This document shows, piece by piece, positions 26,801 to 28,539 of a stretch of 64,000 nt of DNA; positions within the stretch are counted from its first letter, which is position 1; every line of letters starts with the position of its first letter. Source of the DNA: Escherichia phage FL33; the sequence record PP400788; one strand, given 5' to 3'. A program made the position numbers and the translations under genes. The notes beneath the pieces were generated by a model. The model was given only the letters and a program-made list of their open reading frames with translations, did not search any database and was not told the origin of the DNA.

Positions 26801-27730
26801 ATGTCAGGATATAATTCTCAGAATCCAAAGGAACTCAAAGATGTCATTCTAAGACGTTTAGGGGCTCCAATTATTAATGTTGAGTTAACACCCGATCAAA
26901 TCTACGATTGCATCCAGCGTGCCCTAGAATTATACGGTGAATACCATTTTGATGGACTTAACAAAGGTTTTCATGTATTTTATGTAGGAGATGACGAAGA
27001 AAAATATAAAACCGGAGTCTTCGATTTAAGAGGTTCAAATGTATTCGCAGTAACTCGCATTCTCCGCACGAATGTTGGATCAATAACGTCAATGGACGGA
27101 AATGCTACATATCCATGGTTTACTGACTTTCTTTTGGGAATGGCTGGTATTAATGGTGGCATGGGGACTTCTTGTAATAGATTTTATGGACCAAATGCCT
27201 TTGGAGCTGATTTAGGATATTTTACCCAGCTTACCAGTTACATGGGAATGATGCAAGATATGCTTTCTCCTATTCCAGACTTTTGGTTCAATTCAGCAAA
27301 TGAACAACTCAAAGTCATGGGAAACTTCCAAAAATATGATTTAATTATCGTAGAAAGCTGGACTAAATCATACATTGATACTAATAAAATGGTTGGAAAT
27401 ACAGTAGGATACGGAACAGTCGGTCCGCAAGATAGCTGGTCATTATCTGAACGATATAATAATCCAGACCATAATTTAGTAGGTCGTGTTGTTGGTCAAG
27501 ACCCAGATGTTAAACAAGGTGCTTATAATAACCGTTGGGTGAAAGACTATGCTACAGCTTTAGCTAAAGAATTAAATGGCCAAATTTTAGCACGTCACCA
27601 AGGTATGATGCTTCCTGGAGGTGTTACAATTGATGGACAGCGCTTAATAGAAGAAGCTCGATTAGAAAAAGAAGCATTACGCGAAGAATTATACTTACTT
27701 GATCCTCCAGTGGGAGTGTTAGTTGGATGA
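26801..27730 (+). CDS. 13: Neck protein gp13
   Basis: 309 aa, size and position as T4 gp13. Confidence 0.95.
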
Positions 27731-28539
27731 ATTATACTAAAATTTACGACTCTCTTATAGAAAGATCTCTTAAAAGAGGTCTTAATAAGAAAAAATTAGA
27801 TTATTATACAGAATCACACCATATTGTCCCAAAATCCATGGGAGGAGATGATTCTAGAGAAAACAAGGTTTTACTGACAGCAAGAGAACACTATTTTGCA
27901 CATGAGCTTCTTTTTAAAATACACCGAAATTCTGAAATGGCTTATGCTTTAATAAAATTCTCCAAGGGTACAAAAGAGCAGAGAATTGTAAGTAAAGATT
28001 ACGGATGGATTAAAGAGGAAACATCTAAAATTAGATCAGAAACCATTAAAAAGTTTTGGGCGAATCTATCACCAAATTTAAAACAGGAACGAATTAAAAA
28101 AGCCGGAAAAGGCATTAAAAAAACTAAATCTTTATGGACAGATGAAAAGAGAAAAGAAGTTAATGCAAATATTCGAAAAGCTTCAGTGAAATATTTGGAA
28201 TCGTTATCAGAAAACGAAATGTTAGAATATAAAGAAAGATGTTCTAAACAGATGAAAGATTTTTGGTCTGAGCTTAAAAGTGACCCCCAAAAATACGAAA
28301 AGTATTTAAATAAACTATCTAAGGGTCTTGCAAAAGTCGAAAAGAGAAATTGCCCGCATTGCGGAATTATATGTGATGTAGGAAATTATGGAAAATACCA
28401 CGGCGATAAATGCAAAGTTATCACGGGTGTATCTCATAGCAGAAAAAAATTAAAATGCCCGCACTGCTCTAAAATCATGGATAAGTCTCACGCTAAAAGA
28501 TACCATTTTGACAATTGCAAATTTAAGAAGGTCGAATAA
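27727..28539 (+). CDS. HNH-family homing endonuclease with tandem C-terminal zinc-finger-like modules (free-standing mobile gene inserted between genes 13 and 14)
   Basis: 270 aa; HNH motif [32 protein letters not shown]; two C-terminal CPHC...YH..C repeats; start ATG overlaps gene 13 stop (ATGA at 27727-27730), stop TAA 28537-28539 is 2 nt before gene 14 ATG. Confidence 0.8.

Follow-up and report, generated by a model that had tools for sequence, protein, structure and literature searches.

The question raised by the neck gene region of Escherichia phage FL33 is what an open reading frame (ORF) of 270 codons is doing between genes 13 and 14, two genes that in phage T4 are separated by one nucleotide (nt). 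The ORF, referred to here as HEG (homing endonuclease gene), is found in a 64,000-nt stretch of the FL33 sequence record PP400788; this whole stretch is called the window and its numbering is used throughout (Table 1). Very probably HEG encodes a free-standing HNH homing endonuclease of the Mob type, and is a selfish mobile cassette located exactly between the two neck genes. Both the ORF and its family matches are far beyond chance, given 270 codons in DNA of 32% G+C and strong profile matches. The conceptual gain from one more such gene is small, since free-standing homing endonucleases are classically known from the T-even phages and HEG is already labelled in GenBank; the ORF carries the label "homing endonuclease" in many records, including those of RefSeq T6 and of phage FL34 (PP400789.1, Tequatrovirus), the latter being 100% identical to the window. 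What is notable is the linked recoding of 20 nt at the end of gene 13, a synonymous divergence threefold lower than that of the flanks, and repeated use of the same junction by related endonucleases.

Presence and absence of HEG at the gene 13-14 junction

A megablast comparison of the region (query of 2014 nt) with an annotated phage collection yielded 505 related phage records. An insert is found at exactly the same site in 46 of these (9%), among them T6, YUEEL01, CrRp10 and fPS-2, and the site is empty in the other 459, where the joined flanks span 1204-1206 nt as against the 2014 nt of the query; relative to the empty T4-type junction the insert is ~809 nt net. In T4 itself the last position of gene 13 is 94553 and the first of gene 14 is 94555, with 1 nt and no gene between them; that T4 has no gene here had been stated in an earlier note on the window that was made from the sequence alone. 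That note had also proposed a free-standing insertion into the conserved late block, and the comparison of the junction among relatives agrees with it: T4 and most of the relatives are without the gene, rather than carrying a homolog at the site as part of a conserved core. Read base by base, 12 filled junctions agree in their boundaries and 15 empty ones are uniform. After the 46 carriers the best match listed in the annotated phage collection is ~31% identical. IMG/VR scans with gp14 and with HEG contained few T-even junctions, and the annotated phage collection was used instead. HEG is a free-standing gene between conserved genes, sporadic in occurrence and precisely absent elsewhere, as is typical of the Mob-type genes.

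Across the insert the window reads GGA TGA ATT...GAA TAA T ATG where T4 reads GGT TAA T ATG. The ATG of HEG shares the tetranucleotide ATGA with the stop of gene 13 (27727-27730), an overlap correctly described in the earlier note, and the TAA stop of HEG (28537-28539) is followed by a single T (28540) and by the gene 14 ATG at 28541, so that the gap of 2 nt given in that note is in fact 1 nt, a trivial correction. With 810 nt in place of one T, HEG re-uses the ancestral TAA-T-ATG, the context of gene 14 being the same as in T4, and gene 13 gains a new stop, the TGA that comes from the ATGA overlap. Gene 13 is equal in length to T4 gene 13 with 92.7% nt identity. The AAGAAGG motif near the end of HEG, identical in all 12 of the filled junctions that were read, probably serves gene 14 as a substitute ribosome-binding site, now that the insertion lies between gene 14 and the end of gene 13. 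An intron-encoded endonuclease was considered and excluded: two intact ORFs flank HEG and there is no Rfam intron match at E<=1, a scan of 26500-29500 having returned neither an intron nor any other RNA family.

The gene order in FL34 is 13, HEG, 14, 15, 16, 17, near the terminase genes, and HNH proteins encoded beside terminase genes are a described class (PMC3592412); HEG might accordingly be thought a packaging-associated HNH protein of the HK97 gp74 type that works with the terminase and is placed near genes 16 and 17 for this reason. So slight is the probability of this that it has been rejected, for 459 of the 505 close relatives, T4 included, are viable without the gene, the family matches are to Mob-type homing endonucleases, and the [CxxC]2 zinc site of the HK97 gp74 type is missing from an HNH core that is without CxxC pairs, the first cysteine of the whole protein being C172. 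In addition, T4-type phages package by a headful mechanism that employs the gp17 nuclease, which also counts against a role of HEG with the terminase.

The recoded end of gene 13

The last nucleotides of gene 13 differ between phages with and without the insert, carriers reading GTGGGAGTGTTAGTTGGATGA and non-carriers TTTGGAATTTTGGTAGGTTAA. Eight fixed differences distinguish the 12 filled from the 15 empty junctions, all of them within a block of 20 nt abutting the insert; seven are substitutions (GTGGGAGTGTTAGTTGGA) that fall in the final 18 nt coding for gp13, and one is the change of stop codon. In the same set of junctions no further fixed difference is found within 200 nt on either side, and shared polymorphism returns only 7 nt upstream of the block. 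The gp13 C-terminus is PPVGVLVG in carriers and PPFGILVG in non-carriers. A 30-nt probe for the block has exactly 46 matches in the phage collection, every one in an HEG carrier, and the linkage of the block is therefore 46 of 46 carriers against none of the 459 non-carriers. An origin of the block in another genus found no support among the gp13 C-termini seen (PPFGILIG, PPFGILLG, GPVGILIG, PPTPILIG, PPMGIIIG), none of which has VGVLVG.

A precedent exists in the T-even endonuclease MobE, for which polymorphism around the nick site has been proposed to provide self-immunity (PMC2790892). MobE and HEG are alike in having polymorphisms between carriers and non-carriers at the presumed target (PMC2790892), and by this analogy the recoded block is a candidate for a self-immunity change at the target site of HEG. 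Within the block, 10 nt ahead of the HEG ATG, there is also a Shine-Dalgarno-like GGGAG (27712-27716), and the block may just as well, or in addition, act as the ribosome-binding site of HEG.

Spread, persistence and possible decay of HEG

Synonymous divergence was compared in the same ten carrier genomes and is 0.25 for gene 13, 0.078 for HEG and 0.20 for gene 14. The HEG value is about one third of that of either flank, so that the copies of HEG have a common ancestor much more recent than that of the DNA around them. Outside the 20-nt block carriers diverge from non-carriers by the same amount as members of each class vary among themselves, and polymorphisms are shared by both classes; many flank haplotypes therefore carry the element.

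The lineage also appears in more distant phages. The three closest diverged orthologs, with 52-57% amino acid (aa) identity, are in metagenomic contigs (L075:38-835, L076:265-1065, L077:187-990), and in each case a gp14 gene 70-77% identical to that of the window follows directly. Two of the contigs reach far enough upstream, and in both the gene follows the gp13 C-terminus; one contig has the same ATGA overlap and TAA-T-ATG arrangement. This suggests that the HEG lineage has been site-specific for the 13-14 junction over evolutionary time. A different enzyme occupies the same place in the Dhakavirus vB_EcoM_FB (MT682711), whose gene FB_0164 (cluster P0010) is also an HEG between the gp13 and gp14 genes (L053:2495-3139). 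Its product of 214 aa has an N-terminal HNH domain with 54% identity over the first 40% of the window HEG (75% nt identity over nt 3-115), but is without zinc fingers and has a C-terminus that cannot be aligned to that of the window protein. This junction has thus received enzymes that differ in their DNA-binding modules, and it appears to be a recurrent landing site. The ESCO10 member of the FB_0164 cluster is annotated, apparently wrongly, as "baseplate hub subunit and tail lysozyme".

Persistence of the lineage at 13-14 across genera, together with a ratio of nonsynonymous to synonymous divergence (dN/dS) of ~0.09 among 11 intact copies that indicates a protein kept functional, would also be in accord with a domesticated competition factor, a nuclease that would employ the same chemistry as in homing but be retained mainly to harm co-infecting T-even phages and to drag the late genes 13, 14 and 15 and the terminase into the progeny (marker exclusion). 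The phage T4_ev151 (LR597660; L078, 9001-11511 plus flanks) is of interest in this connection, being 85-88% identical to T4 upstream of HEG and 98.1% identical over 9.8 kb from the HEG 3' end, with HEG exactly at the mosaic boundary; this fits the marking of genetic-exchange boundaries by nucleases (PMC10448857). Nevertheless a competition factor is considered rather unlikely, because no flanking haplotype beyond the 20 nt accompanies HEG, as hitch-hiking of neighbor genes would require, because only 9% of the records have the element, and because the frameshifted copy of vB_EcoM_F1 and the 805-nt copies of vB_EcoM_FN and SHFML-26 show that it is dispensable. Use of T4_ev151 as a test for a conversion tract was rejected, as it is a mosaic rather than a T4 derivative and offers no clean tract.

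Of 12 copies examined, 11 have an intact ORF. The exception is vB_EcoM_F1 (L063:2127-2938), where a 1-nt deletion leads to a stop at codon 154 and the gene is annotated as two hypothetical proteins; the copies of vB_EcoM_FN and SHFML-26 are likewise annotated as two ORFs. These three copies may be decaying or may be sequencing errors, and such copies are what a homing cycle predicts. They could also be taken to mean that HEG is an inactive relic that has lost its nuclease, F1 being frameshifted and FN and SHFML-26 apparently so, and that it survives as neutral cargo, or solely to bind DNA or regulate; I-TevI shows that proteins of this kind can double as repressors (PMC2988022), and MobE activity was undetectable in vitro (PMC2790892). 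Against this stand the 11 intact copies of 12 and the low dN/dS, the 14 variable residues among the copies, of which none is catalytic and none a zinc ligand, and the youth of HEG relative to its flanks, which argues for recent spread. An inactive relic is on these grounds quite improbable as an account of the element, and relic status is unlikely for the copy in the window.

The HNH head and zinc finger tail of the HEG protein

The earlier identification of the product as an HNH homing endonuclease is supported by the intact ORF and by profile matches to PHROG 655 "homing endonuclease" (E=3e-52, residues 1-267) and to Pfam HNH_4 (25.6 bits vs a cut-off of 22). The Mob-type N-terminal domain, aa 1 to ~80, encloses the HNH core with the motif H31-H32...N46...H55...H59. 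In an alignment of 27 family sequences all of the core residues listed in Table 1 are invariant, and the catalytic residues on which the earlier assignment depended are in place. An AlphaFold2 model was made from the same alignment, with a mean predicted local distance difference test score (pLDDT) of 90.2; in it the HNH core forms a beta-beta-alpha unit (strands 29-32 and 47-50, helix 52-66) at pLDDT 94-97. By motif and by predicted fold the protein belongs to the HNH (beta-beta-alpha-Me) superfamily, and it is predicted to be a nuclease. A sequence search of PDB chains found no solved relative, the HNH matches being marginal at E>=0.08.

The central basic region is probably a DNA-tracking linker or a set of DNA-binding repeats. 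NUMOD3 (Pfam PF07460), which many relatives have, gives no match in the HEG protein at E<=0.1, and internal repetition of the helical region is modest (z=3.7).

Two tandem zinc finger-like repeats had been seen in the earlier note and are confirmed; they lie at the C-terminus, each conforming exactly to CX2CX12HX3C. Both are beta-beta-alpha units in the AlphaFold2 model, with strands 206-208 and 215-217 and helix 218-224 in the first finger, and strands 241-243 and 250-252 and helix 253-263 in the second. Of the second finger C264 is invariant in the family alignment, and C244, P245, C247 and H260 are nearly so; the pattern of this last finger, CPHC...(K/R)(Y/W)HFDNCK, is almost invariant. The further opinion that tandem zinc modules are unusual in a phage HNH enzyme does not hold, since among the 120 best homolog clusters, all 120 of which have an N-terminal HNH, at least one finger is found in 87 and at least two in 21, and the layout is also that of I-TevIII.

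Relation to known endonucleases

The N-terminal HNH domain of RB3 MobE is 44% identical to that of HEG over 114 aa (E=5e-24), and the N-terminus of RB7 MobD is ~46% identical. The T-even Mob proteins (MobA-E) and HEG share the N-terminal HNH pattern MNYxKIY...HHIVP...N...EH..AH, and they are alike in being free-standing, promoter-less, situated between conserved genes and sporadic among relatives. The HEG site in the late structural block is absent from the T4 mob and seg sites tabulated by Edgell et al. (PMC2988022). RB3 MobE is without C2HC fingers that can be aligned to those of HEG, its C-terminal DNA-binding part being different. MobE is reported to nick, whereas from its sequence HEG could either nick or make a double-strand break.

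The tail of the protein resembles instead I-TevIII, the endonuclease of the phage RB3 nrdB intron, which at 269 aa is nearly the size of HEG (270 aa) and has an N-terminal H-N-H and two C-terminal CX2CX12-13HX3C fingers. The fingers begin at C211/C214 and C242/C245 in I-TevIII and at C209/C212 and C244/C247 in HEG, and they align in register with 33% identity over the 78 C-terminal aa (E=2e-7). Residues H26/H27/N39/H48 of I-TevIII correspond by motif to H31/H32/N46/H55 of HEG with equal N-to-H spacing; however, the I-TevIII HNH domain cannot be aligned to that of HEG by BLASTP and the middle regions are unrelated. Alanine mutants in the I-TevIII H-N-H lose cleavage and keep binding, each of its fingers binds one zinc ion, DNA binding requires the fingers, and cleavage of both strands is carried out by a dimer of the enzyme (PMC1865063). 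The HEG tail has the same type of double C2HC motif, and zinc binding, DNA binding and dimerisation can be suggested for it by analogy. The two differ in that I-TevIII resides in a group I intron and HEG is free-standing, and in that the I-TevIII target is nrdB, that of HEG being presumably the 13-14 junction.

The HEG protein thus joins a Mob-type head to an I-TevIII-type tail, and modular shuffling of this sort has already been described for these families. I-HmuI of the Bacillus phage SPO1, an extended two-domain protein with an N-terminal HNH and a C-terminal DNA-binding domain that follows the DNA (cited in PMC1865063 and PMC2790892), is an intron-encoded nicking enzyme whose likeness to HEG comes from the literature only, there being no significant sequence or fold match between them. 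By its sequence HEG is placed with the T-even Mob-type HNH endonucleases, as an uncharacterised enzyme of established kind, architecture and annotation.

Expression and a proposed homing cycle

No exact match to the late promoter TATAAATA is found on the + strand between 20386 and 32486, and scans for sigma-70 promoters and for terminators gave results at background level. With no exact late promoter nearby, and since the mobA, mobC, mobD and mobE cassettes are described as promoter-less (PMC2988022), HEG is likely expressed from a late polycistronic message.

Cleavage and homing by HEG are predicted from what its sequence and that of its relatives contain, and the following cycle is proposed. 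The late 13-14 message would include the promoter-less HEG, whose translation would begin in the ATGA overlap with help from the GGGAG that arises in the recoded end of gene 13. The protein would bind DNA through its helical region and two C2HC fingers, as in I-TevIII, and in a mixed infection with a T-even phage lacking HEG the HNH domain would nick or cut the DNA of the rival at or near its empty 13-14 junction. Recombinational repair from the carrier genome would then copy a cassette consisting of HEG and the last ~20 nt of gene 13. Carrier DNA would be protected both by the splitting of the site by the insert and by the seven linked substitutions at the end of gene 13. As the cassette would give gene 13 its stop and gene 14 its ribosome-binding site, and re-use TAA-T-ATG, the cost to the host phage should be little.

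A more detailed version can be offered only tentatively and is on balance doubtful. In this the mobile unit would be the ORF together with the 20-nt block, the block providing immunity and a ribosome-binding site at once; the hybrid of Mob head and I-TevIII tail would act as a dimer that cuts both strands at a TTTGG-N3-TTTGG repeat destroyed by the recoding; and the lineage would have tracked the 13-14 junction across the genera of the Tevenvirinae.

A number of observations weigh against homing by HEG, or against parts of the proposed cycle. A strong terminator-like hairpin, TGGGGCCGCAAGGCCCCA with a T-rich tail, is situated at 26771-26788 (+), after wac ends and before gene 13 begins, and no exact late promoter follows it; it clouds the source of 13-HEG-14 transcription. 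The linked block could exist mainly for its ribosome-binding site and not for immunity, and the orthologs of contigs L075 and L077 retain a T4-like PPFGIL(I/L)G end of gene 13, so that the recoding is not universal in the lineage and immunity need not depend on it everywhere. Recombination among T-even phages is free, and shuffled flanks alone are no proof of homing; moreover there is no co-conversion tract around HEG beyond the 20-nt block. For both MobE and I-TevIII the site of action is removed from the insertion site, and the position of the junction does not fix where HEG cuts. Fold searches with the model add little, giving only weak partial matches, to the HNH domains of Cas8-HNH, McrA, Gme HNH and GVE2 HNH, to the tandem C2H2 fingers of CTCF and to a helical DNA-binding repeat. 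Finally, neither a name nor a study for an HEG at 13-14 was found in the literature. A mobile Mob-type endonuclease gene is nonetheless the preferred explanation.

The practical value of the locus is in an uncharacterised enzyme with sharply defined natural filled and empty sites and, in the essential gene 13, a 20-nt candidate resistance allele in complete linkage, to which the diverged orthologs and the Dhakavirus HEG with its unrelated tail at the same junction add. This would be a clean system for studying target choice, self-protection and the shuffling of heads and tails in Mob-type HNH enzymes. Anyone engineering or crossing T-even phages should allow for a possible bias from T6-type donors in how the neck and terminase region is inherited.

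Features of the region and other endonuclease genes in the window

Table 1. Positions in the window of HEG, its predicted domains and the adjoining genes and signals
Feature	Position	Strand	Description	Basis
Gene 13 (neck / head-tail adaptor)	26801..27730	+	Upstream flank	ORF; PHROG 211 (head-tail adaptor Ad2)
Recoded 3' end of gene 13, HEG-linked	27710-27729	+	20 nt abutting the insert	
HEG ORF	27727..28539	+	270 aa + stop, ATG start	ORF list; family profiles
HNH catalytic core (predicted)	27811..27903	+	aa 29-59: E29, H31, H32, N46, E54, H55, H59	
Central helical basic region	28003..28332	+	aa 93-202; five long helices	AlphaFold2 model
Zinc finger 1 (putative), CX2CX12HX3C	28351..28413	+	aa 209-229: C209, C212, H225, C229	Regular expression
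Zinc finger 2 (putative), CX2CX12HX3C	28456..28518	+	aa 244-264: C244, C247, H260, C264	Regular expression
AAGAAGG, candidate gene 14 ribosome-binding site	28525..28531	+	Within HEG 3' end, 9 nt before gene 14 ATG	
Gene 14 (neck / head closure)	28541..29311	+	Downstream flank	Pfam T4_neck-protein, E=9.5e-138

Gene 14 is interrupted downstream of HEG in vB_EcoM_G9062 (MK373779, L055:2914-3471), where ~55 bases are present that other phages lack and a stop occurs at codon 186; an error of assembly or the disruption of an essential gene would account for it.

Two other ORFs of the window are of the GIY-YIG Seg type. One of 233 aa at 40549-41250 (-; Pfam SegE_GIY-YIG, E=3e-6) lies between the capsid genes 23 and 24 on the opposite strand, the position of T4 segD. 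The other, of 205 aa at 46080-46697 (+; Pfam SegE_GIY-YIG, E=8e-8), stops 2 nt short of uvsW, the helicase gene at 46700-48208, in the position that segE has in T4. The C-terminus of this second ORF resembles that of RB3 MobE, with 50% identity over 32 aa, a likeness between a Seg-type and a Mob-type protein that is another sign of shuffled DNA-binding tails.

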